42,308 nucleotides of DNA from an uncultured bacterium (lineage in GTDB: Bacteria > Gemmatimonadota > Gemmatimonadetes > Gemmatimonadales > Gemmatimonadaceae), in contig CAXBQP010000026.1 of the NCBI GenBank assembly GCA_963978095.1, positions 1 to 42,308 of the forward strand, read 5' to 3'. The notes beneath the pieces are model-generated. The model was not told the origin of the DNA. It saw nothing but the letters and a program-made list of their open reading frames with translations, and did no database searches. Numbering within the stretch: the first letter of the stretch is position 1; each line of letters begins with the position of its first letter. Both the position numbers and the translations under genes were made by a program. Below are positions 8,347 through 38,211 of this stretch, in pieces.

Positions 8347-11310
8347 ATGCGGAGGGTGAGAATGGGTGGTCGCGGAATCTTCTGGTCTGTGCTGGTGGTC
8401 ATCGGTCTCGCACCTCGCGTGAATGGGGCGCAGCGTCCACGTCGTGAGGCGGCGGATGCGCCTCCGGCCGCCGGTTTCACGCAACTGCTCGGGCGACCGA
8501 CCGATCATGCCATCACGCTGAGCCTGCTCTCCGGCCGGCGAATCGACAGCTATGTGGAGTTTGGCATCAGCGCACAGGCGCTGACGCGGCGGACGCCGTC
8601 GCAGACGCTCACCGCTGGTGTCCCGCTCGAGGTCGAGTTGCGGGATCTCGACCCCGCGACGCGCTACTTCTATCGGGTCCGTACGCGCGATGGTGCAACC
8701 GGCGACTTCGCGGCGGGGGAACTGTACTCGTTTGTGACCGCCCGACGCTCCGGAAGCAGCTTCAGTTTCGCGCTGCAAGGCGACTCGCATCCGGAGCGCG
8801 CGGGGACGATGTACAGTGCGGACCTGTATCGCCGCACGATGACGCGCGTCGCCGCTGAACACCCGGATCTCTACTTCACGCTCGGTGACGATTTCTCGAT
8901 CGAACGCCTGATTTCGTCGCAGCAGCTCTCGCAGCCTGCCGTGGACCGGGTCTACGCCGATCAGCGGGAGTTCCTCGGCCAGATCGGTCGCGGCACTCCG
9001 CTCTTTCTCGTGAATGGCAATCACGAGGAGGCCGCGCGCTTCCTGCTCGACGGTACACCCACGAGCGCGCCGGTGCTCGCGGCGCGGGCGCGGAACGCGA
9101 TGTATCCCCTTCCTGCGCCCGGAGGGTTCTACACCGGAGACGAGGAGCAGGTGGAGCATGTGGGGCTCCTGCGCGATTACTACGCGTTCACGTGGGGCGA
9201 TGCGCTCTTCGTGGCCATTGATCCGTATTGGCATTCGCAGGTGATGGTCGACGCGCCGCCGGGTGGGGGTGGCGGCGGTCGAGGGGGACGCGGAAGGGGC
9301 GGTGGCGGCGGTGGTCGCGGGCGTGGGGGGAATGCCACGCGTGACGCACTCGCCGGACGAGGCGGTCCTGGTGATCCCACGCGCGATCGCTGGGCGGTGA
9401 CCTTGGGCGATGCCCAGTATGCCTGGCTCAAACGGACCCTTGAAGGGAGCACCGCGAAGTACAAGTTCGTGTTTGCGCATCATGTGATGGGAACAGGGCG
9501 CGGCGCCGTGGAAGAGGCGGATCTGTTCGAATGGGGCGGTCGCGACCGGAATGGCGCGGATCGCTTCAAGGAAAAGCGCCCGACGTGGGAGCTGCCCATC
9601 CATCAGCTCTTCGTGAAGACCGGGGTGACGATCTTCTTCCAGGGGCACGATCACCTGTTCGCCCGACAGGAGAAGGATGGGGTGATCTATCAGGAGACGC
9701 CGAATCCCGCGGACGACAGCTATCAGGCCTTCAATCGTGAGGCCTATCGGTCGGGCGACGTGCTCCCGAACGCGGGGCATCTCCGGGTGAACGTCACGCC
9801 GGACAGTGTACGGGTCGAATATGTGCGGTCATTCCTGTCCAAGGACGAATCACCGACGCAACAGGACGGCGCGGTGGCATTCGCCTACACGGTGCGGCCG
9901 CGCAGGGCCGTTCCGGCGCCTGCCCGCTCAGCGCCCCCTTCCGCGGACCAGCACGGCGCATTGCAACTGCGGAGTCGCTCCGCGCAAGGAGGTGTTCTGC
10001 CCGTCCGCTACACCTGCGACGGCGTGGGCCTCTCTCCCGCCCTCTCGTGGAGTGGCGCGCCTGCTGGCACCGTCGCGTACGCGATGCTCATGACCACGCA
10101 GCCACCGACGGGCGGACCGAAGTTCAACTGGTTGCTCTACGATATTCCCGCGACCACCACCACCATCCCCGAAGGGTCCACAGCGGTCGGGACCTTCGGA
10201 TTCGCCGACGACGGGGCGGGACGTGGCTATGCGCCCCCCTGTTCCAAAGGGCCGGGGCCCAAGCAGTACACCTTCACCCTTCATGCACTCTCGGCGCGTC
10301 CTGCACTCGGTGATCCATCACAGGTCCGTGTGACGGGGAGCGTGCTCGCCGAGTCGATCGCGGCACGTACGATTGCGACGGCGACGCTGACGTTGACGGC
10401 GACACGCGACGCTGCGATGACGAACTGCGGATACATCGTCCGCTCGCTCGAGTTCTATCGCGCGGAGAACGCCCTCGATGTCAGCTGCGAGGGCGGGGTC
10501 GCAGCGATCAGCAGTGACGGGATCCAATCCCGACATCCGATGATGAACGGGATCACCGCGACCAATCAGCAGGTGCCGATCCCGCAAGATTTCACCGGGG
10601 CCAACGCGTGGCATTTCCCGCTGACGCCGACTGTTGCCGCGACCAAGGTCGCCGCCGTCGATGGCCCGATCGGGATCGCGGTCAATGGCGTGCCGATCTT
10701 CAATCCCTGCAAACAAGGTGGTTGCGATCCGGTCACCGGACGGGGCGATACCAAGGTCGAGGGAGAGCTGGACCTCTGCAACGGGCACGCGGGGCGTGCG
10801 GACGACTATCACTATCATGCGGCACCACTCTGCATGATGCGCGACCAGGCGGCGGACTATTGGGACACGCACCCACTCGGCTGGGCCCTCGATGGCTACG
10901 CGATCTTCGGGTTCAACGGACCCAATGGTCGGCCGGCGGCGCGTGATGCGATGTGCGGGGGGAACACGGACGCGCATCCGAATGCGCCCGCCGGCTACGC
11001 GTATCATGTCACCGAGAAGAGTCCGTATGTGCTCAACTGTTTCTATGGGGATCCGAGTCCCGATCTCGCGCGGCAGGGGAGCAAGTATGCGCCGATCCGT
11101 CCGCCCGGGCGGCCGATGCGCATGAGCGACATGACGCTCGACGCGACCGCGGCGTCGCTCGCGGTTGGCGGCACGACGACGATGCATTGGAAAGTGCGCT
11201 CGACGACATATCAGGTGCGCTACACGCGGACGTCGGAACGATGCTGGACCTTCACTTTCCTGACCGACGAGGTGACGACCGGCTCGTCGAACTACTGTCG
11301 GCGGACCTAG
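8347..11310 (+). CDS. Secreted fusion: metallophosphoesterase + YbhB/YbcL (PEBP-like) + YHYH domain
   Basis: GDSH/LGDD/GNHE/AHH/GHDH motifs; then YTCDG..SP.LSW..P.GT...YAPPC..GPG..Y.FTL.AL (PEBP); then GPIGIAVNGVPIFNP...GHAGRADDYHYH...LGWALDGYAIFG (YHYH). Confidence 0.85.
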   Translation: MRRVRMGGRGIFWSVLVVIGLAPRVNGAQRPRREAADAPPAAGFTQLLGRPTDHAITLSLLSGRRIDSYVEFGISAQALTRRTPSQTLTAGVPLEVELRDLDPATRYFYRVRTRDGATGDFAAGELYSFVTARRSGSSFSFALQGDSHPERAGTMYSADLYRRTMTRVAAEHPDLYFTLGDDFSIERLISSQQLSQPAVDRVYADQREFLGQIGRGTPLFLVNGNHEEAARFLLDGTPTSAPVLAARARNAMYPLPAPGGFYTGDEEQVEHVGLLRDYYAFTWGDALFVAIDPYWHSQVMVDAPPGGGGGGRGGRGRGGGGGGRGRGGNATRDALAGRGGPGDPTRDRWAVTLGDAQYAWLKRTLEGSTAKYKFVFAHHVMGTGRGAVEEADLFEWGGRDRNGADRFKEKRPTWELPIHQLFVKTGVTIFFQGHDHLFARQEKDGVIYQETPNPADDSYQAFNREAYRSGDVLPNAGHLRVNVTPDSVRVEYVRSFLSKDESPTQQDGAVAFAYTVRPRRAVPAPARSAPPSADQHGALQLRSRSAQGGVLPVRYTCDGVGLSPALSWSGAPAGTVAYAMLMTTQPPTGGPKFNWLLYDIPATTTTIPEGSTAVGTFGFADDGAGRGYAPPCSKGPGPKQYTFTLHALSARPALGDPSQVRVTGSVLAESIAARTIATATLTLTATRDAAMTNCGYIVRSLEFYRAENALDVSCEGGVAAISSDGIQSRHPMMNGITATNQQVPIPQDFTGANAWHFPLTPTVAATKVAAVDGPIGIAVNGVPIFNPCKQGGCDPVTGRGDTKVEGELDLCNGHAGRADDYHYHAAPLCMMRDQAADYWDTHPLGWALDGYAIFGFNGPNGRPAARDAMCGGNTDAHPNAPAGYAYHVTEKSPYVLNCFYGDPSPDLARQGSKYAPIRPPGRPMRMSDMTLDATAASLAVGGTTTMHWKVRSTTYQVRYTRTSERCWTFTFLTDEVTTGSSNYCRRT

Positions 11311-18946: not shown

Positions 18947-21067
18947 CTACGGCACCACCCGCGCCGCCACCCACCGCGGAATCCCCATCTCCTCGCTCGT
19001 CGGCAATTTCTTGGTCCGATTGTACTGGTTCCGCGCCGCCACGAGCTTGTCGAACCGCTGGATCCACAGCTGCGCTCCCAAGTCATACCGGTTCGTCACA
19101 TTCCCCAGCCAGTACGGCCGGTTCTCGGCGCGCCACGACCGCTCGTACAGCTCCTTCGTCAACACGTAGCCGTCGCGCAGATCCTGCATGCGGGAGTTGA
19201 TCGTGCTCGCGATCTCGCCGAGATCGTGGCCGGGATCGCCGCCGACCGCCACGGTGTCCTGCGCGTGCGTGTACAGCTTGGCGATCTCATCGGCGAGCTG
19301 GAACTTCATGCCGATGAAATCGAGCCGCCGCGCGCCGAGCTCCATGGCGTCGAGGGCATCGGTGTTGCGCAGGGCGCCCGTTTCGCGCGCCTCCGCGATC
19401 AGCACCAAGGCGCTCTCCGCCGCGATCCGCAGTTGCCGGCTGTAGGGACGCAACTGGGCCGCGCGCAACTGGCCGTCCACCGAGAAGGGATCCACCCAGA
19501 ACATCGCGTCGTTCCCCTCACCCGCCTTCGCCGCGCCGATCGCGAGATGCGCCGCCGTGAGCTTGCGCTGCGCTTCGTTCAGCTTGCCGGTGGCATCACC
19601 ATGGAACTGCACGCCATAGCTCGCCGCGAACTCGGGGATCGAGGCCTCCCCCTTTTGCCACGCGGCCGCCGCCCCGAAGAGGATCCCGTACCACGTCTGG
19701 TTGAAGATCGATTCGCCGTCGTCGTCCCACGTGGTGTTCAGCATCCCGGTGGCACCCATCTGCTGTCCCTCACGCACGAACCCCTGGATGTTCCGGAGCG
19801 CGATGTCGTTGTTCGGGTACACGCGGTTCCAACTCGCAACGCCCGGCGCGACCCACACGTCCATGCCCGCGTCGAGGTACGGCTTGAGCTTCGGCCCGAA
19901 GTTCTTGTAACTCCAATAGTCCCACCCCACCGCGATCATCGAGTGCGGGAGTGACTTCACCAGATCCGGGTGCCGCTCGGCGATATCGCCCCAGAAGAGC
20001 AGCTTCTTCTCTGCGGGACGCAGCGCGAGCTCCACCTGCTTCAGGAAATCCAGATACACCGAACCGATCCCCTGCGCCTTCACCGCATCACGCGTGCGCC
20101 CCATCCCGAGCTCGAAGGTCTCATCGGCGCCGATATGCACGAACTTCGACGGGAAGATGCTGGTGATCTCCTCGAACCAGCTCTTGATGAGGGGCACCGA
20201 CTGCGGGTCCCCCGGTGCGAGTACGTGCCCGTGGTCGTTCTCGGCGAGCGCGGAATAGAGATCGTACTTGAGCACGTGATGCAGGTGCCCGAATGCCTCC
20301 TGCTCCGGGATCACGTCGATATGGTACTGCGCCGCGTACGCCACGAGTTCCTTGACGTCGGCCTGCGAGATCGTCCCGCCCGGTGGCCCGATCAACGGAT
20401 TCTTCTTGTACTCCAGCGTATGCTCGTAATACGGCGAGTACACGTTCATCTTGTACGCCGCGAAGGTCCGGATCTGCTTCTTCTGGAACTCGAGGGTCGG
20501 GATCGGCCCGCGCGAGAGGTCGTCCTGGATGCCGCGGTACTTCATCGCGGGCCAATCACGGATCACCGTCGCATACACCGTCGGCTGTCGGCTCGTCCCC
20601 TGCAGCAGCTGCTTGACCGTCTGCACGCCGTAGAAGACCCCGGCCGACGTTGCGGCGACGACATCGGCGCTCGTGGCCGACGTGACGACGACGTATCCCT
20701 CGGGCGACGCGGCCTCACTCAACGTCTGGTTGTGCCTGGCGAGCAACGCCTTGCCGCTCTCACTCGACGCCCGATGCAGACGGACGACGAATCCGCCCTC
20801 GGCGCCGGTGGTGACTTTGAACCCGCGTTCGCGGAGTGACTCGCCGAGGTCCTTGGCCGCGAATCGATCGTCGGCGTTCGAGGCTGACGCGATCGCGATG
20901 GTGCCGCCCAGTGGCACGAACTTCCCTCCGCCGATCTCGCGCGGCCGGGGAATGAGGTGCGGATCGTCCGCTTGGGCGGCCGCGGTCCCGGCAACAGCGC
21001 TGGTGAGAAGCACGAGCGCCAGCGTGCGGGACGTCACGCGCGCGGCGATAGAGCGGCAGGTGGTCAT
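18947..21067 (-). CDS. GH20 beta-N-acetylhexosaminidase, secreted
   Basis: DWPAMKYRG..DD.SRG, VIPE..FGH, catalytic HIGADE; signal peptide. Confidence 0.88.
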   Translation of the reverse strand: MTTCRSIAARVTSRTLALVLLTSAVAGTAAAQADDPHLIPRPREIGGGKFVPLGGTIAIASASNADDRFAAKDLGESLRERGFKVTTGAEGGFVVRLHRASSESGKALLARHNQTLSEAASPEGYVVVTSATSADVVAATSAGVFYGVQTVKQLLQGTSRQPTVYATVIRDWPAMKYRGIQDDLSRGPIPTLEFQKKQIRTFAAYKMNVYSPYYEHTLEYKKNPLIGPPGGTISQADVKELVAYAAQYHIDVIPEQEAFGHLHHVLKYDLYSALAENDHGHVLAPGDPQSVPLIKSWFEEITSIFPSKFVHIGADETFELGMGRTRDAVKAQGIGSVYLDFLKQVELALRPAEKKLLFWGDIAERHPDLVKSLPHSMIAVGWDYWSYKNFGPKLKPYLDAGMDVWVAPGVASWNRVYPNNDIALRNIQGFVREGQQMGATGMLNTTWDDDGESIFNQTWYGILFGAAAAWQKGEASIPEFAASYGVQFHGDATGKLNEAQRKLTAAHLAIGAAKAGEGNDAMFWVDPFSVDGQLRAAQLRPYSRQLRIAAESALVLIAEARETGALRNTDALDAMELGARRLDFIGMKFQLADEIAKLYTHAQDTVAVGGDPGHDLGEIASTINSRMQDLRDGYVLTKELYERSWRAENRPYWLGNVTNRYDLGAQLWIQRFDKLVAARNQYNRTKKLPTSEEMGIPRWVAARVVP

Positions 21068-21779: not shown

Positions 21780-23000
21780 TCAGCGTGGTGCGATCCGGAC
21801 GCCGAGTCCGATGCTCTGGAAGGAGCCGTTGGCGGCGGTCTGTTCGAGTTGCAGCTGACCGTACGCGGTGATGGCGCGCGTGGCTTGCCAGCTCGCGGTG
21901 CCGGTGACCCCCCCCGTGGTCCGGTCGAGGAAGGACAGGATCGTCGGCCCGGCGGCACTGAAGGCCCACTGCTCCTTGCCGAAATGACCGGCGAGATCCA
22001 CCGTCAACCGGTCGTTGCGCAGTGTCACCGACGCCATCGGGCTCACGGCCGAGAAGGCCGAATCCGAGGTGATACGCATGCCCCCGCTGATGGAAACATT
22101 CGGCGACAGCCAGGCGAACACGGACGGCGCCACCTGCAGGTTGTTCGCACCCGTGCGCGCGATCATCGACACGGTCGCGGCGACGCCGATCGAGCCACCG
22201 ATGCGCGTGCTGAGCGCGGCGCCCGAGTTCGAGCGTCCGGCGCCGCTGAACGCGAAGCCGATCAACTCGGTCGTGGAGATGCCGATGTCGCGCGCGATGG
22301 CGCCGTACACTTCGCTTTGGGCGTCAAAGGCGCCGGTCTTGCCGACGAAGGTCGGGGAGGTCACGGTCCGGACCGCGACGCGGACCGCCGACGCATGGTC
22401 GAGTCGGATCGGCAGCTGCGCATAGTAGACCTGCGCCTTGGACGACGCGCTCGTCGCGCTGATGAACGCGGCCCATGCCTCGACACTCACGCCAGGCGGC
22501 CCTCCGAGGAGTGAGATCCCCTTGAGCGCGTCCTCGTTGGAGGCGTCGAACGACAGCGCTTCGGTCCACGCCGTCCGCGCCTCGCCAAGGGCGCCCCGAT
22601 CGAGCAGGTTGTATCCCAATGTCGTGAGCGCGAGCCCCAGCCCCGTCGTGGCCTCGAGGAGACTGCCCGGCAGCGTGCGGGCGCGCCGGTACAGCTGCAC
22701 CGCATCGGCCCCATGGCCCTGCCGCAAGGTGAGCCACGCCATGCGCACCGCCACATCGTACGTCGCCGGCGCCGCGCCGAAGGCCTCGATGAGTATCTGT
22801 TTGGCCGCCGTGAAGTCACCGCGCGCCTCCAGGGCGAGCGACTGATCCCATGCCGTACCGGTGGCGGCTTGCGGCAGTCGCACCGGAGGTCCGTCCTGCG
22901 CCGCCAGACGCGGGACGCCACCGGCGAGCAGCAGGGTCGTCAGGGCGCAGCGCGTGAGCACACGAGCGGTGCGAGCGGTGCGAGCGGAGTGCGGCATCAT
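21780..23000 (-). CDS. Exported protein with N-terminal TPRs and a putative C-terminal beta-barrel
   Basis: Start ATG 23000 overlaps the upstream TGA (ATGA); signal peptide; TPR helices, then amphipathic beta-strand pattern ending SIGLGVRIAPR. Confidence 0.7.
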   Translation of the reverse strand: MMPHSARTARTARVLTRCALTTLLLAGGVPRLAAQDGPPVRLPQAATGTAWDQSLALEARGDFTAAKQILIEAFGAAPATYDVAVRMAWLTLRQGHGADAVQLYRRARTLPGSLLEATTGLGLALTTLGYNLLDRGALGEARTAWTEALSFDASNEDALKGISLLGGPPGVSVEAWAAFISATSASSKAQVYYAQLPIRLDHASAVRVAVRTVTSPTFVGKTGAFDAQSEVYGAIARDIGISTTELIGFAFSGAGRSNSGAALSTRIGGSIGVAATVSMIARTGANNLQVAPSVFAWLSPNVSISGGMRITSDSAFSAVSPMASVTLRNDRLTVDLAGHFGKEQWAFSAAGPTILSFLDRTTGGVTGTASWQATRAITAYGQLQLEQTAANGSFQSIGLGVRIAPR

Positions 23001-25096
23001 GAGACCTCGGCCTGTGGATCGTTGTCCTGCGGGGCAATCAGTACCACCCGCTCCGTGGAACCACGGGTGACACTCACACGGTGTGCGTGTCCGGACAGGG
23101 ACACCAGTGCGGACGTGCGGAAGGATGCGCTCCGCCCCGCAATGGCCAGTGCCCCCTCGCTGCGCCGCGACGCGTACTGCACGTCCCAGTCGTTGAGACC
23201 CGGCGCGACCACGGTGAGCAAGTCGAGGAACGCCCACGGCCACGCGAAGAGCAGTCGACGCGGGACACGGTCGGTCCACTCGATCGTCCCCTCCTGGTCG
23301 AACGGGACCCGCGCCATGGCCAACAGCAGGTAGCGCAACAGCGAGTCCTGCGCCCCGTCGAAGGCGACGATCACGAGCGCATTCTCGTACGATTCCAGAT
23401 ACAACGCACCGCGCGCCGAGCGCAACGCGCGGCGACCCCACAGATCGACGTCGACGCGGGCGGGTTCCTGCCGGTCCGTCGCGGGATCGGTGAGCAGCCA
23501 TCGCGAGCCCGGTGGGAACGCGAGCGCACCCGCCAGCGCTTCGTCACGCATGATCGGCCGCACGCGGGCCCCGATCGCCGGGATCACGCGATGCGAGATG
23601 GTGACGGTCCGATCGGTGCGGCTCACGACGTCCCCGAAATCCGCCGCGAGCGTCTCGCTGCCGAGCGTCGGACCGCGCTGGACGTGGAAATGCAGATGCG
23701 GCACCAGCGAGCGCCCGCTGTTGCCACAGCGTCCCAACTCGGCGCCGGCGCGAATCGGATCGCCGACTTTGACGTTGATGCTCCCCGGCTTGAGATGCGA
23801 ATACACCGAGTACAGGTCGGAACCGTGCGCGATCACCACGGTGTTCCCCCAGTTCTCCCGCGCATTCATGCCGCCGATGGGATTGTCCGGCACCCCATCA
23901 CGGACGGATTCGACCGTTCCGGTTCCTGCGGCGAGCACGGGCAGATTGTAGCACCGGAAGTCGCGGGGTTCGCGCCCCTCGCCTTCCCAGGCGCGGCCAT
24001 CACTGCCGAGAATCTCGAAGTCGAACGCATGGCGCCACGGTCCCTGATGCGTGTGGGCACCGTCGTGCCCCTGTGTCACGGTCCAGGTGCCCCGGAACGG
24101 GAGCCGGAAGGGGAGCCACGCGAACTCGCCGAATCGCCGGACCCGCATCAGGTGACGCTCGAGGGCGTCCTCGGGGCTCGTGGCCGTGCGCAGCGCGGTG
24201 CTGGGATTCCGGTCGCGCTCCCGCATGCGCAACGCCGTGACCACCAGCAGCGACGTCACCGCGAACGGGAGCGAGAGCAATGGCAATGAGAGCACACCAC
24301 TGAGCGGCATCAAGGCGTACGTCACCACACTCGCGAGTGCACCACCGAGCACGGCGAGGAGGATCGAGGCGGGATGCGGGACGAAGTAGACCCCCCCCAC
24401 CGCCATCGCGGTGAGCATCGCATTGAACGCCGCGGTGAGATCCGTGGGGCCGAGATCGACCCCACTCCGCAAACCGGCATGCGCGAGCGCTGCACCGAGG
24501 ATCCCGGCGACCGCCAACAACAGCGCGATCCGGCTGTGCCACGCGATCGCCGCCACCACCAGCAGGCCGGCGATCGTTCCGTGCAGGTACAGCACGGCGG
24601 CGGGAATGTCGAGCCAGCTCGTGTCGAACCATGCGACCGGGATGGCCGCGAGATGGTCCGGTGTCGCGCCGTCGGCATGCGGGGTGAGGCGGGCGGTGAG
24701 TTGCACGACCCACGTGGCGGCCACGAAGGGCAGCGACAGCGCGGGCAGTGCCTGCCGGGCGAGCAGGTGGGTCAGCGCAGCCCCGAACAGCACCGCCAGC
24801 GTCGCTCCGGCGATCACGAGGGCCCAGGAGCTCCCGTCGGGCCCGGTGATCGCGGCGAGTGCGGTCAGCACGGCGGCGCAGGCGTATGATCCGTCGCGCA
24901 CGGCCTCGCGGCCGAAGCCGAGGGCGAGCGTCACCCCGTGGGCCACGAGGACGGCGACCAACGCGGCAGCGGCGGCCCGTGGAAAGGTGCACAACGCGGC
25001 CAGCACGAATCCGCCCGTCACGAGATTCCGCGACAGCAGGACCTGCGCGAAGGGCCGCAACGCGCTGTCGAGGAGCGCCCGCACCGTCAGTCGCAT
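22997..25096 (-). CDS. Urea-transporter-family membrane domain fused to an M23 metallopeptidase and a C-terminal domain of unknown function
   Basis: Two UT-like repeats (FAQVLLSRNLVTG...LSLPFV; AAFNAMLTAMAVGG...LSLPFAVT), then H..AFDF, PVLAAGTGTV, GNTVVIAH, YSHL, GNSGRS..PHLHFH. Confidence 0.82.
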   Translation of the reverse strand: MRLTVRALLDSALRPFAQVLLSRNLVTGGFVLAALCTFPRAAAAALVAVLVAHGVTLALGFGREAVRDGSYACAAVLTALAAITGPDGSSWALVIAGATLAVLFGAALTHLLARQALPALSLPFVAATWVVQLTARLTPHADGATPDHLAAIPVAWFDTSWLDIPAAVLYLHGTIAGLLVVAAIAWHSRIALLLAVAGILGAALAHAGLRSGVDLGPTDLTAAFNAMLTAMAVGGVYFVPHPASILLAVLGGALASVVTYALMPLSGVLSLPLLSLPFAVTSLLVVTALRMRERDRNPSTALRTATSPEDALERHLMRVRRFGEFAWLPFRLPFRGTWTVTQGHDGAHTHQGPWRHAFDFEILGSDGRAWEGEGREPRDFRCYNLPVLAAGTGTVESVRDGVPDNPIGGMNARENWGNTVVIAHGSDLYSVYSHLKPGSINVKVGDPIRAGAELGRCGNSGRSLVPHLHFHVQRGPTLGSETLAADFGDVVSRTDRTVTISHRVIPAIGARVRPIMRDEALAGALAFPPGSRWLLTDPATDRQEPARVDVDLWGRRALRSARGALYLESYENALVIVAFDGAQDSLLRYLLLAMARVPFDQEGTIEWTDRVPRRLLFAWPWAFLDLLTVVAPGLNDWDVQYASRRSEGALAIAGRSASFRTSALVSLSGHAHRVSVTRGSTERVVLIAPQDNDPQAEVS

Positions 25097-25118: not shown

Positions 25119-26456
25119 TCAGAGCCACGACGGCATCTCCTCCTGCTGCACGAGCGTCTCCACCGTCTCGGCGCGGCGAATGACCGCGTGGTGGCCGTCG
25201 AGCCCGACCATCACGACGTTGGGACGCGCGGTGATGAACTGCATCCATTGGGTCACGTTGTAGGCGCCGATCCGCCCGACCACCACCCGGTCTCCCGCCT
25301 TCAACGGCGGAAAGAGGATCCGGTCGCGCACCACGTCGATGTTCATGCAGAGTGGGCCGACGAACACCGTCGGCTCCGCGGTGCCGTGGACATCCTGCGC
25401 CGGGAACACGTCGTGGCGATACCACCACGCGGTCGGCAGCAGGTTCACGCCCGCGTCGATGACCACCGCGCGACGACCATCGGTGAGCCGCTTGTTGCCC
25501 ACGACGCTCGCCACCAGGATCCCGGCGTCGTCGACGATCGCGCGCCCCGTCTCGAGGACGATCCGCGGCCACTCCGCACCGCCGTACGCTTCGTCGAGTC
25601 CGGCCGCGATCTTCTCGACGTACTGCGAGAAACTCGGAGTCGCCTGCTCGCCGGGGAGATACTGCGATTGCAACGTGTTCCGCGACGCGAAGCCGCCCCC
25701 CATGTCGATCGTGTCGATGGACACATGCGATTCGTCGCGCAGCCGCGCGGCGAGCATCGCGATGCCCTTGGCCGCCAACCGATACGCATCGGCCTCTTGA
25801 ACGAAAGTGCCGACGTGGATGTGCAACGTGGTGATCTCCAGCACGCCACGTCGCACGATGCGCCGAGCGGCCTCCAGCGCCGAGCCGTTCTCCAGATTGA
25901 AGCCGAAGCGGTCCCACGACTGAGTGGGCAACTCGGTCATGTTCACCCGGATCCCGACCGTCGGACGGATCCCCAAGCGCTCGGCGACCTTCTCCGCGAG
26001 CGCGACCTCGTCCAGATGGTCCATCTGCACATGGGCGCCCGTGGTGAACGCCATCTCCAACTCGGCCTCGGTCTTGGCGGGGCCGTTGAACAGGATCTGA
26101 TGGCCCGGCATGCCGAGCCGCAGCGCCATCTGCATCTCGAGACCGCTGACCACCTCCGCCCACGCCCCCTCTTGATGCAGCACGCGGCAGACGGCCCCGA
26201 GATAGTTCGTCTTGTAGCTCCAACCGATCGTGAAGCGCGGGATGCGCGTCGCCATCTGGTCGCGGAGCTCGCGCATCCGCTCCCGGAGCATCCGCTCCGA
26301 GAAGAGGATCAACGGCGAGCCGTAGGCGGCGACGAGGTCGGCGATCGGTACCCCTTCGAACTTGTCGTACACCCGGATGGTGGGGCGCGAACCGAACTTG
26401 CTGATGCTCCCCACCTGATGGCGGACGATCACGGGACGTTCGTAACGCGGCTTCAT
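25119..26456 (-). CDS. Fold-type III PLP decarboxylase (diaminopimelate-decarboxylase-like, substrate unknown)
   Basis: SYKTN (PLP Lys), EVVSGLE, NGPAK, HIHVGT, IDMGGGF, ETGRAIV, GPLCMNID, GAY. Start ATG 26456 overlaps the ATP-grasp TGA. Confidence 0.88.
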   Translation of the reverse strand: MKPRYERPVIVRHQVGSISKFGSRPTIRVYDKFEGVPIADLVAAYGSPLILFSERMLRERMRELRDQMATRIPRFTIGWSYKTNYLGAVCRVLHQEGAWAEVVSGLEMQMALRLGMPGHQILFNGPAKTEAELEMAFTTGAHVQMDHLDEVALAEKVAERLGIRPTVGIRVNMTELPTQSWDRFGFNLENGSALEAARRIVRRGVLEITTLHIHVGTFVQEADAYRLAAKGIAMLAARLRDESHVSIDTIDMGGGFASRNTLQSQYLPGEQATPSFSQYVEKIAAGLDEAYGGAEWPRIVLETGRAIVDDAGILVASVVGNKRLTDGRRAVVIDAGVNLLPTAWWYRHDVFPAQDVHGTAEPTVFVGPLCMNIDVVRDRILFPPLKAGDRVVVGRIGAYNVTQWMQFITARPNVVMVGLDGHHAVIRRAETVETLVQQEEMPSWL

Positions 26457-27538
26457 GCGGAGGGCGTGGCGAAGGGAAGGATGCCGAGCGCGGAGAGCTG
26501 GCCGAAGGTCGCCATGTCCGCGACCTGGTCGAGGGAGATCCGGACGAACATCTGTCCGGTCTTGTAGGCCGGCAGGGGGGCGGTCATGGGCGCGCCGAGC
26601 GCGAGTCGGGCGCACGCCGAGGGCAGGTTCTGGCCGGCGGCTGCGGTGAGATAGCACCAGGCGGGAAAGCGCGGGTTGATCTCGATCACGCGCAGCGCCT
26701 CTGCGGTCATCTCGCCCTTGGCCGCGATGATCTCCACTTCGAGCGGGCCGCGCCAGTTGAGCGCACGGATGAGGGCCGCGGCCAGTGTGAGCAGCGCCGG
26801 ACTCCCGACGGTGACCCCTGACCAGCCTTTGCCTTTGTCCGTGAGCGCGAGTTTGCGCATCGCGACCGCTCCGATCATCGCGCCCGTGCCGTCGCCCAAC
26901 GCGCACACGTTGTACTCGTCGCCGTCGACGTGCTCCTGGACGATGACGGGGAGTCCCCAGGTGGCTTCGTAGTAGCGGAACGAGGCGAGCGCATCGGCCT
27001 CGGTGTGACAGACGTATGCCCCGTAGTAGACCCCTTTCACCACGACGGGCAGCCCGAACTTCTTGATGAGCTTCCCGAGGCTGTCCGCGCTCATCAGCGG
27101 CTCCGAGTCCGGGATGTGCACGCCAGGCGCGGTGCCAAGCTTGGGGAGCTGCGGTTTGGAGCTGCGATCGATCGCGTCGACCGTCGGGAGAAAAGTGTGC
27201 ACGCCGAGGGCGAGCAGCTCGTCGCGGAGCAACGCGACCGCACGAATCTCGGAGTCCAGCGTCGGGATGAACACCGTGATGCCGAACTGTGCCACGAGCT
27301 CGCGCATGCGGTGCAGGAGCGCGTCACGACCGGCCGACGGGAGGGGAAGGATCGCGCCCCCGTCGAGCAGTCCGCTGGCGTAGAATCCCGGATCGAGTGG
27401 GTCGTAGCCCAGTCCGATGATGCGTCCGTGGAAGTTCGGGTCGAGTCGGAGCGCACGCGCGACCGGCACCCCGGGCGCGGGGTTGTCGGTGGCATTCATT
27501 CCCGTGACCGCGATGGTCGCGGCGAGCGGCGTGTTCAC
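26453..27538 (-). CDS. ATP-grasp carboxylate-amine ligase
   Basis: IPTLDSE, LPVVVKG, IVQEHVDGDEY, GPLEVE, IEINPRFP motifs; GTG start overlaps the PqqD TGA. Confidence 0.88.
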   Translation of the reverse strand: MNTPLAATIAVTGMNATDNPAPGVPVARALRLDPNFHGRIIGLGYDPLDPGFYASGLLDGGAILPLPSAGRDALLHRMRELVAQFGITVFIPTLDSEIRAVALLRDELLALGVHTFLPTVDAIDRSSKPQLPKLGTAPGVHIPDSEPLMSADSLGKLIKKFGLPVVVKGVYYGAYVCHTEADALASFRYYEATWGLPVIVQEHVDGDEYNVCALGDGTGAMIGAVAMRKLALTDKGKGWSGVTVGSPALLTLAAALIRALNWRGPLEVEIIAAKGEMTAEALRVIEINPRFPAWCYLTAAAGQNLPSACARLALGAPMTAPLPAYKTGQMFVRISLDQVADMATFGQLSALGILPFATPSA

Positions 27539-27786
27539 TTCACCAGCCCATGTTCGCGAAGTCGCCCGACCAGCTCGTAGACATCGCGCGCGATGTCGTC
27601 CTCCGGCTCGGTGTCGAATTGGTCGTGCAGGGCGGCGATGACGGCCTCGGGCGTTGCCCCTTCCTTCAAGGCGCGCAATGCCGCGAGCGCCGTGGCATTG
27701 ACGTTGTACGTGTGGCCCGTCAGCGGGTCGAAGACAAAGCCGGCGTCGGAAATCGCCAGTTCACGCAGACGTTCGGTGTTCGACAT
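27535..27786 (-). CDS. Stand-alone PqqD-family / RiPP recognition element (RRE) protein
   Basis: 83 aa: beta strands (LAISDAGFVFDPLTGHTYNVN), then helices (ATALAALRAL; PEAVIAALHDQF; IARDVYELVGRLREHGLV). Alternative start ATG 27825. Confidence 0.82.
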   Translation of the reverse strand: MSNTERLRELAISDAGFVFDPLTGHTYNVNATALAALRALKEGATPEAVIAALHDQFDTEPEDDIARDVYELVGRLREHGLVK

Positions 27787-27914: not shown

Positions 27915-28547
27915 CTAGGTCCGGGTCGGCGTCAGGCGTCGATCGACCGCGACGAGCAGGGCGCTCATCACGACGATCGCGACGGTGATCAGGCCGGACA
28001 CTTTCAGGACGACCGGATATCCGAGCGTGTTCACATCGAGGAAATAGTACGGATACCATCCCTCGGCGGCCCCCCGGGCCAGCGAGTAGGCCAGATACCC
28101 CGCCGGGTATCCCAACCAGCTGACGATGTGGCTCACACGAAGCGTCCCCTTGGGGGCGAAGCGCCACCAAAAGAGCAGCACGAGGAGCGGTACGATGTCG
28201 TGCACGAGTTCATCGGCCGCGATGGAGAGCCCTTTCGGATGCCAGGTGCTGCGGAGCAGCGCCGAGTAGGCGACGCCGACGAACGCGATGTGGACCGTCG
28301 TGGCAGCCAATACCCCCGGGCGGCTCGCCCAGGCGGTCAGCGCGCCTTGGCGCGCACGCGCCAGGACGGTGAAGAGCACCGCCACCACGAGGTTGGTCGT
28401 GATCGTGAAGTAGCCGACCAACAGCCAGAGCTCATGGAGTGCCGGGGTCCCACGTGCCTGGGCGCGCATCAGGGCGGTCACCACCTGCAGGACCAGCCCG
28501 GCCCAGCAGCAAGCCGCAACGAAGGCGGCAGCGGATCGACGAGTCAT
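27915..28547 (-). CDS. Pr6Pr / FAR-17a-AIG1-like membrane protein
   Basis: YFTITTN, LVHDIVP, WLGYP..Y..Y...RG...GWYPYYFLDV; probable start ATG 28547. Confidence 0.8.
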   Translation of the reverse strand: MTRRSAAAFVAACCWAGLVLQVVTALMRAQARGTPALHELWLLVGYFTITTNLVVAVLFTVLARARQGALTAWASRPGVLAATTVHIAFVGVAYSALLRSTWHPKGLSIAADELVHDIVPLLVLLFWWRFAPKGTLRVSHIVSWLGYPAGYLAYSLARGAAEGWYPYYFLDVNTLGYPVVLKVSGLITVAIVVMSALLVAVDRRLTPTRT

Positions 28548-28793: not shown

Positions 28794-28904
28794 TCGGGCC
28801 TTCTGCGGGATCGGCGCGCAACGCGTCGGTCCGATGACGCCCGTCGGGTGCATCCCCGGCTTCCACTCGCTGCTCACCACCACCGCGCGCAGGCGCGTTC
28901 GACC

Positions 28905-30923
28905 ATGTCCGTTCCCGTTCCGACCCGCACCCATGTCCTGGCCGCCGCCGCCCGCGTGTACGGCGCGCTGGGATTCCGCGGCGCGACCACCCGCAAGATC
29001 GCGGAGGCCGCCGGCGTCAATGAAGTCACGCTCTTCCGGCAGTTCGGCAGCAAGAACGCCCTGCTGCTGGAGGCGCTGCGGGTCTCGGGGGCGGTGCATC
29101 CCGACGCCGTGCTGCCGACGGCCCCGGTGGATCCCCTGGCCGAGTTGACCGCCTGGAGTTCGCACATGCGGAAGTCGCTGTTGGCCATGCGTGGCATGAT
29201 CCGCAAGGCGATGGCGGAGTTCGAGGTCAATCCGGCGATGCCGAAATGCATGACGCACGGGGCCGAACAATCCCTGATGCAGTTGCGGGAGTACCTCACG
29301 CGTCTCGTCGATCAGGGCATGGTGCGCGCCGATGCGGATGTCGTCAGCGCGGCCTCGATGCTGATGAGCGCCATCTTTCACGACGCGCTCGGTCGCGACA
29401 TCATGCCGCACGCCTTCCCGCAGCCCGTGTCGGCGGCGCCGGCCAGCTACGCGCGCCTCACACTCCGCTCGATGGGCTATGAGCCCACGGCGAGCCGGCC
29501 GTCGAACGACCGCAAGCGCACGATCCAGCGCGTGCGACGCGCGCTGACGGTCGTGCTGCTCGTCGCGACCACGCCATGGGCGGGCGTCGCGCAGGGTACC
29601 GCCACGGCCCTCTCCCTCGCGGAGGCGCTGACCATGGGGCAAAAGGCGAGCCACGCCGTGCGTAGCGCCGAGGCCGGCGTGATGCGGGCCGGGGCGCAGC
29701 AACAGCAGGCGCGTGCGCAGTACTTGCCGCAGGTCAACGGAACGTTCGGCTACCAACGCCTGATGCAATCGCAGTTCTCGGCCATCACGTCCGGGAGCGG
29801 TTCCGGGTCCGGGTCGGGATCTGGGTCCGGTTCCGGGTCGGGCGGCGGCACCAGCAGCTTCGGCGACATCACCAAGATCTTCGCGTCGCCCAACACGGCG
29901 ACGCTCGGACTTTCGCTGACGCAGAATCTCTTCACCGCCGGCAAGTTGGAGTCCGCGACCAAGGGGGCGGCCGCCGCCCGAACGGCCGCCGACATCGGTC
30001 TCGACGCCGCGCGCGCGCAAGTCAATCTCGATGTCGCCCAGGCGTATTTCGACGCCGTCGCCGCCAAGGCGCTGGTCGACATCGCCGACAGCACCCTGGC
30101 CCAGGCCGAACGGACGCTGTCGCAGACCACGGTCAGCAAGCAGGTCGGGAGCGCGGCCGAGTTCGATCTGTTGCGGGCGCGGGTGGCGCGTGACAACCAG
30201 CGTCCGGCCCTGATCCAGGCGCGCGGCAACTACGACCTCACGATGATGCGTCTGCGTCAGTTGCTCGGGATCCCGCTCGACAGACAACTCGCGCTCACCA
30301 CGCCGATCCGGGACGAAGGCGTCGCGGCGGAGGCGCCCGGAGCGGATACCGCGGTGGCGCATCGCGCCACCGTGCGCCAAGCGGCCGCCAACGTGACCGC
30401 GCAGCAGTTCGCCCTGTCGGCGGCCGAGCGGAACCGCCTGCCCGCGGTGCAGGTTTCGAGTGCGTATCAGCGCTTTGCGTATCCCGCGGGCATCCTGCCG
30501 CTCGCGCTCAACCAGTACTACCCGAACTGGACCATCTCCCTCGGATTGTCGGTTCCGGTGTTCACCGGTGGCAAGCTCGATGCGGATCGCGCCATCGCCC
30601 AGGCCAACCTGATCGACGCGCAGCAATCCCTGGAGCAGTCCCGTGAACTCGCGGCGCTCGATGCGCGGACGGCGATCCTGCAGCTCGAGCAGGCGCAGGC
30701 CGCGTACGCGAGCAGCGTGGGGACGGACGAGCAGGCGCGCCGCGCGTACGGGATTGCCGAGGTGCGCTTCAACGAAGGGATCTCCACGCAGGTGGAACTG
30801 TTGCAGAGCCGCACGCAGTACGAACAGGCGCGGCTGACCCGCGTGCTCGCGGCGCGTGATCTGGAGGTCACCCGCTTGCGCGTGGCCTTCCTGAAGGACC
30901 TGCCGGTGACGGTGCGGCGCTAA
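28905..30923 (+). CDS. TetR-family regulator fused in frame to a TolC-family outer-membrane efflux protein
   Basis: HTH GFRGATTRKIAEAAGVNEVTLFRQFGSKNALL; no stop before an internal signal peptide (RRALTVVLLVATTPWAGVA-Q); then OEP repeats (AQYLPQV, VAQAYF, RNRLPAV, FNEGIST.VELL). Alternative start GTG 28848. Confidence 0.85.
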   Translation: MSVPVPTRTHVLAAAARVYGALGFRGATTRKIAEAAGVNEVTLFRQFGSKNALLLEALRVSGAVHPDAVLPTAPVDPLAELTAWSSHMRKSLLAMRGMIRKAMAEFEVNPAMPKCMTHGAEQSLMQLREYLTRLVDQGMVRADADVVSAASMLMSAIFHDALGRDIMPHAFPQPVSAAPASYARLTLRSMGYEPTASRPSNDRKRTIQRVRRALTVVLLVATTPWAGVAQGTATALSLAEALTMGQKASHAVRSAEAGVMRAGAQQQQARAQYLPQVNGTFGYQRLMQSQFSAITSGSGSGSGSGSGSGSGSGGGTSSFGDITKIFASPNTATLGLSLTQNLFTAGKLESATKGAAAARTAADIGLDAARAQVNLDVAQAYFDAVAAKALVDIADSTLAQAERTLSQTTVSKQVGSAAEFDLLRARVARDNQRPALIQARGNYDLTMMRLRQLLGIPLDRQLALTTPIRDEGVAAEAPGADTAVAHRATVRQAAANVTAQQFALSAAERNRLPAVQVSSAYQRFAYPAGILPLALNQYYPNWTISLGLSVPVFTGGKLDADRAIAQANLIDAQQSLEQSRELAALDARTAILQLEQAQAAYASSVGTDEQARRAYGIAEVRFNEGISTQVELLQSRTQYEQARLTRVLAARDLEVTRLRVAFLKDLPVTVRR

Positions 30924-36681: not shown

Positions 36682-38130
36682 CTAACCCGCCCGCGCGGCC
36701 GCCTGCAACAGGTCCCACGCCCGCCGGATATGCCGCTCCTCGGTCCCCAAATTCCCCAGGGCGACCCGGATGACGTAGGTAGGACCTAACATCGTGTGGG
36801 ATATGAAGATATCCCCGCTTTCGTTGACCCGGTCGAGGATGCGCGCGTTCCGGGCGTTGGTCGCCTCGACCCCCTCGCCGGGACGCACATGTCGGAAGCA
36901 TATCGTGCTGAACGGGTGGGGGGCGGCGACCTCCCATTCCGGGGCCTCCCGGACCCACCCGGCGAACTGCGACGCCAGCGCGCAGTGATGCCGGATCCGT
37001 GTCGCGATCCCCTCGGCCCCGAACGCGCGCAGCACCATCCACAACTTCAACGACCGGAATCGACGGCCGAGCTGGTAGCCGTAGTCCATGTAGTTGACCA
37101 CCACGTCCTGCTCCGCCGTCTCCAGGTATGCCGCCATCAAACTGAAGGCACGCTTCAGCACCGCCGGCTTCCGCACGAAAAACACCGAACAATCCATCGG
37201 GGTGAAGAGCCATTTGTGCGGGTTCACCACGAACGAGTCCGCGCGGTCGACGCCGTCGAGCAGGTGGCGCAGTTCGGGAACGGCGCCCGCGACGCCGCCG
37301 TACGCCCCGTCCACGTGCAACCAGAGCTGCTCCCGCTGCGCGATGTCGGCGATGGCCGGCACGGGGTCGACGCTGGTCATGCTCGTGGTGCCCACGGTCG
37401 CGACGACCGCGATCGGCTTGAAGCCCTCGGCGCGATCGGCGGCGATCGCGGCCTCGAGCAGTTCCGGACGCATGCGGAACTCCGCATCGGCCTTCACGCG
37501 CACGACGTTCTCGGCGCCGATCCCAAGAGTCATGGCGGCCTTGTCGATGCTGTTGTGCGCCCACTCGGAGCAGTACACGCGCATGCGGGGGATGTCGCGC
37601 CCCGCGAGTCCGAGCCGACGCACCTCGAGCGACGCGTCCGCCTCGCGCGCCGCCGCGAGCGCGTAGAGCGTGCTCGTGCTCGCGAGGTCGTTGACCATGC
37701 CGAACCAACCCGGGGTCAGACCGAGGAGCTGTCGCAACCAATCGGTGACGACCTGTTCGAGTTCGGTGGCAGCCGGGCTCGTGCGCCAGAGCATCCCGTT
37801 CACGTTCAGCGCCGCCATCAGGAACTCGGCCAGGATGCCGGGCGCCGTGGCGCTGTTGGCGAAGTACGCCATGAAACCGGGGTGGTTCCAGTGGGTGAGT
37901 CCCGGCAGGATGGTCCGCTCGAAGTCGGCGAGGATGGTGTCGAGCGATTCGCCCTGTTGCGGTGGAGCGGGAGCGAGAACGTCGCGGGTGGCGCCGGGCA
38001 CCAGCGGCGGCAGCACCGGATAGCGGGCGGGATCCTCGAGGTACCGCGCGATCCAGTCAGCGAGCTTGTGTGCGTGGGCGCGGAACTCTTCGAGCGGGAT
38101 GTCGTGGGTCTCGGCGGACGGCAGTATCAT
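36682..38130 (-). CDS. Group II PLP-dependent (aromatic-L-amino-acid-like) decarboxylase
   Basis: THWNHPGFMAYF, SPAATELE, HNSIDKA, VGTTS, HVDGAYGG, NPHKW, GRRFRSLKLW. Confidence 0.92.
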   Translation of the reverse strand: MILPSAETHDIPLEEFRAHAHKLADWIARYLEDPARYPVLPPLVPGATRDVLAPAPPQQGESLDTILADFERTILPGLTHWNHPGFMAYFANSATAPGILAEFLMAALNVNGMLWRTSPAATELEQVVTDWLRQLLGLTPGWFGMVNDLASTSTLYALAAAREADASLEVRRLGLAGRDIPRMRVYCSEWAHNSIDKAAMTLGIGAENVVRVKADAEFRMRPELLEAAIAADRAEGFKPIAVVATVGTTSMTSVDPVPAIADIAQREQLWLHVDGAYGGVAGAVPELRHLLDGVDRADSFVVNPHKWLFTPMDCSVFFVRKPAVLKRAFSLMAAYLETAEQDVVVNYMDYGYQLGRRFRSLKLWMVLRAFGAEGIATRIRHHCALASQFAGWVREAPEWEVAAPHPFSTICFRHVRPGEGVEATNARNARILDRVNESGDIFISHTMLGPTYVIRVALGNLGTEERHIRRAWDLLQAAARAG

Positions 38131-38211
38131 GGGGAGAAGAATAACGAAACTTCAGCGCCGTCAGGCGCGTATAGAGAGGACGCACTCACCACCCCGAGTC
38201 CCCCTCCACGG

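Follow-up and report, generated by a model that had tools for sequence, protein, structure and literature searches.

What does a urea channel do when a peptidase is attached to it? The question is raised by a 42,308-nucleotide stretch of DNA (contig CAXBQP010000026.1 of assembly GCA_963978095.1; this whole stretch is the window) from an uncultured bacterium of the Gemmatimonadaceae, in which one open reading frame (ORF) encodes a urea transporter (UT) fold and an M23 peptidase in a single protein. This fusion is laid out as follows:

22997..25096, minus strand: UT-M23 fusion ORF, 699 aa
24137..25096, minus strand: UT-fold membrane domain, residues 1-320 of the fusion (Pfam, AlphaFold2 (AF2) and VIA)
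23627..24115, minus strand: M23 zinc peptidase domain, residues 328-490, with H350, D359, H434, H467 and H469
22997..23563, minus strand: C-terminal open β-sheet domain, residues 512-699, without a known family

The fusion gene is the fourth of a six-gene operon, and 4-base overlaps occur at three of the first four junctions. In order of transcription, the other features of the operon are:

27535..27786, minus strand: stand-alone, PqqD-like recognition element (RRE) of the kind found with peptides that are made by the ribosome and modified after translation (RiPPs), 83 aa (Pfam PqqD, E 2e-11)
26453..27538, minus strand: ATP-grasp ligase (PRK12767/ATPgrasp_Ter-like) with invariant E286-x-N288 and no signal peptide
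25119..26456, minus strand: pyridoxal phosphate (PLP) fold-III decarboxylase, 445 residues, closest solved relative FslC
26391..26456, minus strand: N-terminal tail of the decarboxylase, residues 1-22, with [YF]xxPx[IL], G16 and invariant K20
21780..23000, minus strand: signal-peptide-like start followed by TPRs and a predicted YaiO-like outer-membrane β-barrel, 406 aa
21110..21742, minus strand: exported all-TPR protein, 210 aa

This cassette is built from known families, but each of the UT, closthioamide/butirosin (Cta/Btr), RiPP and peptidase-transporter systems has defining features that were looked for and are absent from it. We did not find it described in the literature searched, and a term look-up in RRE-mining papers returned no mention; supplements and subscription papers may bear on this, and large RRE-mining datasets may list this RRE family. 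Our tentative answer to the opening question is that UT-M23 might be the release-and-exit gate of the operon, where, by analogy with CtaD/CtaF, a ligate-and-decarboxylate cycle would run on Lys20 of the decarboxylase tail, M23 would release the product and the UT would export it.

The genes of the cassette travel together. Among 46 genome loci anchored on the UT, the decarboxylase is present in 45 and the remaining locus has no room for it. The RRE is missing from 11 of the 46; ten of these end too soon, and the other, L027 (9465-11792), looks decayed, with a truncated decarboxylase, a broken UT and no ligase or RRE within 9 kb upstream. In 80 metagenome loci anchored on the decarboxylase, UT-M23 comes next in 70, seven have no room and three are without UT-M23. 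A TPR gene follows in 59 of 61 loci with room; in some loci the barrel partner lies upstream, has diverged or was not seen. Across 301 genomes centered on a myxobacterial carrier, a UT is found in 36 of the 37 decarboxylase-positive genomes; seven genomes have a UT only, six of them with stand-alone UTs and the seventh below the cut-off. The cassette is frequent in some groups (37/301 genomes around this carrier) and patchy in others (2/301 in the phylum of the window, 2/151 in another sample), with loci spanning a GC content of 0.29-0.73. No conserved regulator or output gene accompanies it, the commonest extra neighbor occurring in 13 loci. A promoter and terminator scan and a GC profile gave nothing above chance.

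The fusion had been proposed by a first-pass annotation made from the sequence, and it is well supported. Pfam places UT at residues 10-288 (E 9e-40) and Peptidase_M23 at 384-474 (E 1e-15), both above cut-off. The AF2 model, with 109 relatives as input, has a mean pLDDT of 91.5. We ran on it the comparison with dvUT that the annotation had called for, which gave VIA Z 33.3 (root-mean-square deviation (rmsd) 2.4, 299 aligned) for 3k3f; UT-B gave Z 33.8. Pfam, AF2 and VIA thus agree on a two-repeat fold with 10 transmembrane helices. Residues 328-487 match M23 domains (EnpA M23, VIA Z 13.5, rmsd 2.2, 121 aligned). A search returned 397 matches, and UT and M23 Pfam domains are both present in all of the best 120, so the fusion is not an assembly accident; the family has well over 100 near-full-length representatives at 50% clustering. 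Close relatives are from Gemmatimonadota, with L002 being 86% identical. Our main alignment has 136 rows (the query plus one close and 134 distant representatives; 15 listed matches outside 640-790 residues were left out). Mean consensus identity is highest for M23 (0.61), followed by UT (0.46) and the β domain (0.35).

The last of these domains corresponds to the roughly 180 residues that had been left unassigned, and unassigned they stay. Folded alone, its 188 residues form an open β sheet with an AF2 pLDDT of 93.2. There is no Pfam family in the window's member and no family in more than two of 84 members, no PDB sequence match better than E 0.053, no Atlas match and no Foldseek match at E 0.001 or better; the best VIA match has Z 8.9 at 7% identity, and the VIA matches are unspecific β-sheet matches only. 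The likeness to lipid-binding sheets is weak and we do not claim it. A search among shorter proteins gave fragments, stand-alone UTs and other M23s with no clear naturally split UT-M23; the splits seen in L074, L078 and L112 were set aside as possible frameshifts. One longer protein, P0160, joins UT-M23-β via a signal-like segment to a Cys-rich repeat protein.

The peptidase domain appears intact. H350, D359, H434, H467 and H469 are each conserved in 136/136 rows of the alignment and in 97/97 locus ORFs, an overlapping set. In the alignment with the 6JMX peptidoglycan peptidase, H434 falls on H216 and H467 on H247, the two residues mutated in its PDB entries. The zinc motifs had been called intact-looking, and this holds for the full H/D/H/HxH set. 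The quoted motifs are present (HAFD at 356-359, HLH at 467-469), but the first His of the quoted H..D, H356, is found in only 95/136 rows. Since H350 is invariant and H356 is variable, the first ligand is probably H350, in an H-x8-D motif. It is very likely from this conservation that M23 is an active peptidase. It shares the fold and the full residue set of peptidoglycan endopeptidases such as LytM, MepM, Pgp3 and LasA, and differs from them in the H-x8-D first motif, in a predicted cytoplasmic location and in falling below all NCBIfam equivalog cut-offs.

On which side of the membrane does this peptidase lie? The annotation had suggested the cytoplasm, and three indirect lines of evidence on the predicted topology point that way. 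A transmembrane-like stretch between UT and M23 occurs in none of 136 sequences. In the 136-row family, mean Lys+Arg counts on the side of the N- and C-termini are 2.2 (N-terminus), 1.5, 0.65, 1.0, 0.5 and 6.7 (38 residues past the last helix), and those on the opposite side are 0.4, 0.1, 1.7 (34-residue linker), 0.3 and 0.45. The T5a-Pb loop of characterized UTs faces outward (PMC4357013), and the two UT domains of UT-A1 are joined by an intracellular loop (PMC12171576). In three longer fusions, P0137, P0151 and P0255, UT-M23-β is joined at the C-terminus to a small TPR protein, each with a basic-then-hydrophobic, signal-like segment just before the TPR (P0255 alone passes a 19-residue hydropathy threshold). 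We considered these fusions as a sign of a periplasmic C-terminus and rejected this, as all three keep the segment; a signal-like segment kept before a normally exported TPR fits a cytoplasmic C-terminus, which requires one. We consider it very probable that M23 faces the cytoplasm.

We next ask whether the pore still conducts urea. The fusion has the fold of dvUT (3K3F), UT-B and UT-A (PF03253; about 300 residues), including the Sm leucines L77 and L228 and N225, and adds M23 and a β domain to it. Using dvUT filter numbering taken from secondary literature (PMC4357013) and the dvUT alignment, we did not find the canonical filter (Q24/E187, F80/F243, T130/T294) in the window protein, which has C73 and A74 at the F80 and N81 positions, A167, and Ser in place of Thr at the T130 and T294 sites. 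We compared 58 fused UTs with a small control of 10 stand-alone UTs. At the E187 site, 43/58 fused UTs have Ala and none has Gln or Glu, in contrast to Gln in 9/10 stand-alone UTs. At the T294 site, Thr is found in 2/58 fused UTs (Ala 25, Ile 15, Ser 7, Val 6) and in 8/10 stand-alone UTs, and Ile or Val occupies it in 57/136 rows of the alignment. By this comparison the family-wide change is in the outer half of the predicted filter, at the E187 and T294 sites. In a quick tree the fused UTs all fall on one side of a branch with SH-aLRT 89. In mammalian UTs, T334V, a Thr-to-Val change at the T294 equivalent, blocks urea, water and NH3 flux (PMC12171576).

The annotation had argued that the permeant may not be urea from GSYACA (residues 69-74) in place of GxYGFN and from LSLPF (120-124 and 274-278) in place of LTxPF in both repeats. 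These motifs are present in the window protein, but they are not the informative changes: the repeat-1 Asn is kept in 123/136 rows and is lost in the clade of the window protein, and Thr to Ser keeps the hydroxyl. Other evidence bears on urea uptake for metabolism. The earlier observation that no urease genes are in the window extends to the whole genome (91% complete), in which no urease alpha and no urea carboxylase scored above cut-off and the window protein is the sole UT. Urease is found in 5/45 carrier genomes (L013, which duplicates the assembly of L011, was excluded); this proportion comes from genomes whose completeness is not established and has no background rate from non-carriers. 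The Yut equivalog TIGR03441 scores 94.7 bits, below its cut-off of 274.6. A role in metabolic urea uptake is, in our judgment, very improbable.

The two enzymes of the cassette resemble pairs known from other pathways. The decarboxylase conserves K82, H214, E302, R305, C370 and Y399. Its closest solved relative is FslC (E 5e-57), named N-citrylornithine decarboxylase, and BtrK also matches by sequence (E 1e-20). It scores below the equivalog cut-offs for LysA (202.9 vs 297.9 bits) and FslC (206.3 vs 500 bits); a housekeeping LysA was ruled out on this score and because the true lysA is on contig C12. FslA, the partner of FslC, is an NRPS-independent siderophore (NIS) synthetase. In contrast to the rhizoferrin pair FslA/FslC (FigA/FigC), the ligase of the cassette is an ATP-grasp enzyme and the tail does not align with FslC. 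A urea-carboxylase-like role for the ATP-grasp, to which weak profile matches pointed, was set aside as there is no carboxyltransferase partner in the cassette. An ATP-grasp paired with a PLP decarboxylase in one locus is likewise seen in the closthioamide (CtaD/CtaF/CtaE) and butirosin (BtrJ/BtrK/BtrI) systems. In the former such a pair builds tri-β-alanine on a carrier, and Asp in its free form does not serve as a substrate (PMC7183216); in the latter it makes a γ-aminobutyric acid (GABA) unit on a carrier (PMC7183216). Unlike these systems, the cassette has an RRE and a conserved Lys tail, putative M23 release on a channel, and no phosphopantetheine carrier that we could find: a motif scan of 126 loci turned up a GxDS-like motif in a single short ORF, which runs antisense within the decarboxylase gene.

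What, then, would carry the substrate? The annotation had pointed to the N-terminal peptide of the decarboxylase, and this was the right direction, since an RRE-binding motif and an invariant Lys both lie in the tail. The tail consensus is [YF]E[RK]Px[IL]...G..[NS]K. Conservation is 103/104 rows for P8, the same for K20 and 101/104 for Y/F5; the Y5-K20 spacing is 15 in 103/104 rows, the remaining row being gapped, and positions 17-19 and 23-28 vary. The tail aligns with none of 50 PDB relatives, and no PDB homolog aligned before residue 28. The RRE scores above the cut-off of TIGR04353 and below that of the lasso PqqD model NF033530. Discrete lasso RREs bind [Y/W]xxPx[L/V/I/A/F/Y], and in LppB the Pro kink is hydrogen-bonded by N33 and the Tyr by D70 (PMC13381572). 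The cassette RRE has N30 in 72/72 rows and D68 in 54/72, which match LppB N33 and D70 by spacing, not by structural alignment. We predicted from the LppB structure, before the covariation was run, that D68 would change with Tyr to Phe. In 79 distinct pairs of tail position 5 and RRE position 68 we found Tyr-Asp 60, Tyr-His 5, Tyr-Asn 3, Phe-Tyr 7, Phe-Ser 3 and Trp-Asp 1, so that Asp accompanies 60/68 Tyr tails and 0/10 Phe tails. A five-member clade (L029, L032, L033, L036, L046) has His at RRE position 68 and keeps Tyr in the tail. The motif and these residues suggest that the RRE probably binds the YxxPx[IL] motif of the tail. The cassette thus shares with discrete-RRE RiPP systems (lasso B1, LPP LppB, PqqD) a stand-alone RRE with the YxxP-binding N and D and a [YF]xxPx[IL] motif. 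It differs from them in that the motif is the N-terminus of a full-length enzyme and that a lasso cyclase, a B2 protease and a short precursor were not found: no short YxxP ORF recurs in the loci, and the decarboxylase holds the genome's single copy of the complete tail motif.

These observations can be joined into the following scheme, which leans on CtaD/CtaF and BtrJ/BtrK for its first steps. The RRE would present Lys20 of the decarboxylase tail to the ATP-grasp, which would load an acidic amino acid onto it via the side-chain carboxyl; the PLP decarboxylase would then remove the α-carboxyl, possibly in repeated rounds. As no separate carrier protein was found, the RRE-presented invariant Lys would be its natural substitute. 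M23 enzymes cut amide cross-links to side-chain amines, and the cytoplasmic M23 would cut the small amide-linked product off Lys20 for the altered urea-type pore to pass outward. Residues 165-406 of the TPR-barrel protein have ESM Atlas feature matches to YaiO clusters (score 0.95, a lead only) and no Pfam YaiO match. TPR-barrels of the PgaA, BcsC and YaiO type are exopolymer exits. The cassette shares with them the exported TPRs and the predicted barrel, and differs in having no glycosyltransferase or synthase and a UT fold as its inner-membrane part. Taken to its full extent, the scheme would be a new biosynthetic assembly line, with an enzyme-tail Lys presented by an RRE as the covalent carrier for non-ribosomal cycles (β-alanine- or GABA-type amides, possibly oligomers) and with M23-UT releasing the product and metering it into the TPR/barrel route; we regard this wider version as more doubtful than the gate alone.

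Several points weigh against this scheme. Lys20 modification, RRE-tail binding and the product are predictions. The covariation is consistent with binding but not significant, because on a tree of 44 of the 79 rows it comes down to about three changes (2-4 in bootstraps), with one independent pair on starred branches. A blind mutual information scan gave no clear enrichment for the tail (8 of the top 100 pairs vs 5.2 expected) and ranked the Tyr/Asp pair 14th. The K20-G46 spacing is fixed at 26 in 102/103 ungapped rows, a constancy compatible with either a packed or a swinging arm, so Lys20 could be structural. The known Cta/Btr systems use thioester carriers, not lysine. The filter lost polar residues rather than visibly widening, so that a slow or shut pore may be the result. 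A dedicated TPR-barrel exit should be unnecessary for a molecule that can thread a UT pore. Lastly, L076 and L089 (8-10 kb of room) and L122 (757 bases) carry the ligase and decarboxylase genes without an adjacent UT-M23; the RRE is present in L089 and L122, and two of the three are Phe-tail loci.

Some of these points are accommodated if the RRE instead serves only as an adaptor, holding the ligase against the tail of the decarboxylase, with the enzymes acting on free small molecules as FslA/FslC do and the cytoplasmic M23 trimming or maturing an amide at the pore before export. FslC being the closest solved relative, the fixed tail spacing and the three of 80 loci with the enzyme trio and no adjacent UT-M23 all fit an adaptor, and the signs of RRE-tail binding fit it equally well. 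It leaves unexplained the invariant Lys20, which keeps a constant distance from the RRE motif amid variable positions 17-19 and 23-28, and RREs usually present a substrate (PMC13381572); we consider an adaptor unlikely. Less likely still is a sensing or regulatory switch, in which the ATP-grasp would write on the decarboxylase tail, M23 would erase and the UT would sense or import a solute supplied through the barrel and TPRs, with flow inward. Writer, eraser and target would then all be cytoplasmic, a sensor Amt of related fold exists (6eu6, VIA Z 12.3), the polar loss in the outer filter is family-wide and the Ile or Val at the T294 site in 57/136 rows mimics the T334V block (PMC12171576). 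A switch does not explain what the decarboxylase acts on, and no regulator or output gene is conserved alongside the cassette.

We give a low probability to the tail being a RiPP precursor fused to its own enzyme, modified by the ligase, cut off by M23 in the manner of a peptidase-containing transporter and sent out as a peptide. A lasso-type leader motif occurs together with an RRE, no other precursor was found and a peptidase is fused on the inner side of a membrane protein, all of which such a precursor would account for. It would yield one product per 445-residue enzyme from a tail that has no variable core and no length variation, and the domains of peptidase-containing ABC transporters (C39 peptidase, ABC membrane domain, ATPase) are absent, Pfam finding only UT and M23 in the fusion. 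UT pores pass dehydrated urea in single file (PMC4357013), which makes them small-solute pores with no sign of a peptide-wide opening and weakens the analogy with a peptide-processing transporter drawn in the annotation. Highly improbable is the ordinary explanation, in which a functional urea channel would anchor a periplasmic peptidoglycan DD-endopeptidase and the neighbors would modify the wall. The solved M23 matches are largely wall hydrolases or their regulators, the database names are MepM and urea transporter, the TPR and barrel partners are envelope proteins and the topology of M23 is a predicted one. Against this, the topology signs point to the cytoplasm, and urease is rare among carrier genomes (5/45) and was not found in that of the window. 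The plasmid matches at E 1e-20 or better are four haloarchaeal M23 genes and no others, and haloarchaea are not known to have peptidoglycan. Of the first-pass interpretation as a whole, the intact and cytoplasmic M23 and the improbability of metabolic urea uptake have indirect support and the hint at the tail was well aimed; the GSYACA/LSLPF argument is not supported, and the peptide-transporter analogy is weak.

Other observations concern the surroundings of the cassette. In the window, a GH20 hexosaminidase (18947-21067, minus strand) lies downstream and a 210-aa membrane protein without a Pfam match (27915-28547, minus strand) upstream, both co-oriented with the cassette; among the 46 loci they are syntenic in L002 only. 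A heavy-metal-associated/AraC regulator is found upstream of the RRE in 13 low-GC loci (for instance L121:7192-7788) and DUF2202 in four, a possible link to metal response. In one clade (L074:3816-4655, L103:14125-14934, L064:7401-8150) a type IX-sorted FG-GAP protein is upstream in seven loci, and in five the place of the TPR-barrel is taken by a short barrel-like protein with neither TPR nor Pfam match. Elsewhere in the window, one ORF (28848-30923, plus strand) contains a TetR DNA-binding domain and an outer-membrane efflux (OEP) domain and heads an RND operon, which may be a fusion or a frameshift. A 987-aa ORF (8347-11310, plus strand) contains metallophosphoesterase, PBP (PEBP) and YHYH domains. 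A group II PLP decarboxylase (36682-38130, minus strand) is antisense to, and overlaps, the beginning of a 1292-aa frame (36796-40674, plus strand) that has an Omp85/ShlB-like domain at its end and whose true start is probably further downstream.

Any reading discussed here, the ordinary one aside, would extend three textbook assignments: a peptidase of the M23 type would work in the cytoplasm, a UT fold would serve something other than urea, and the partner of an RRE would be the tail of an enzyme and not a precursor peptide. The database names urea transporter and diaminopimelate decarboxylase would mislead reconstructions of nitrogen and lysine metabolism.

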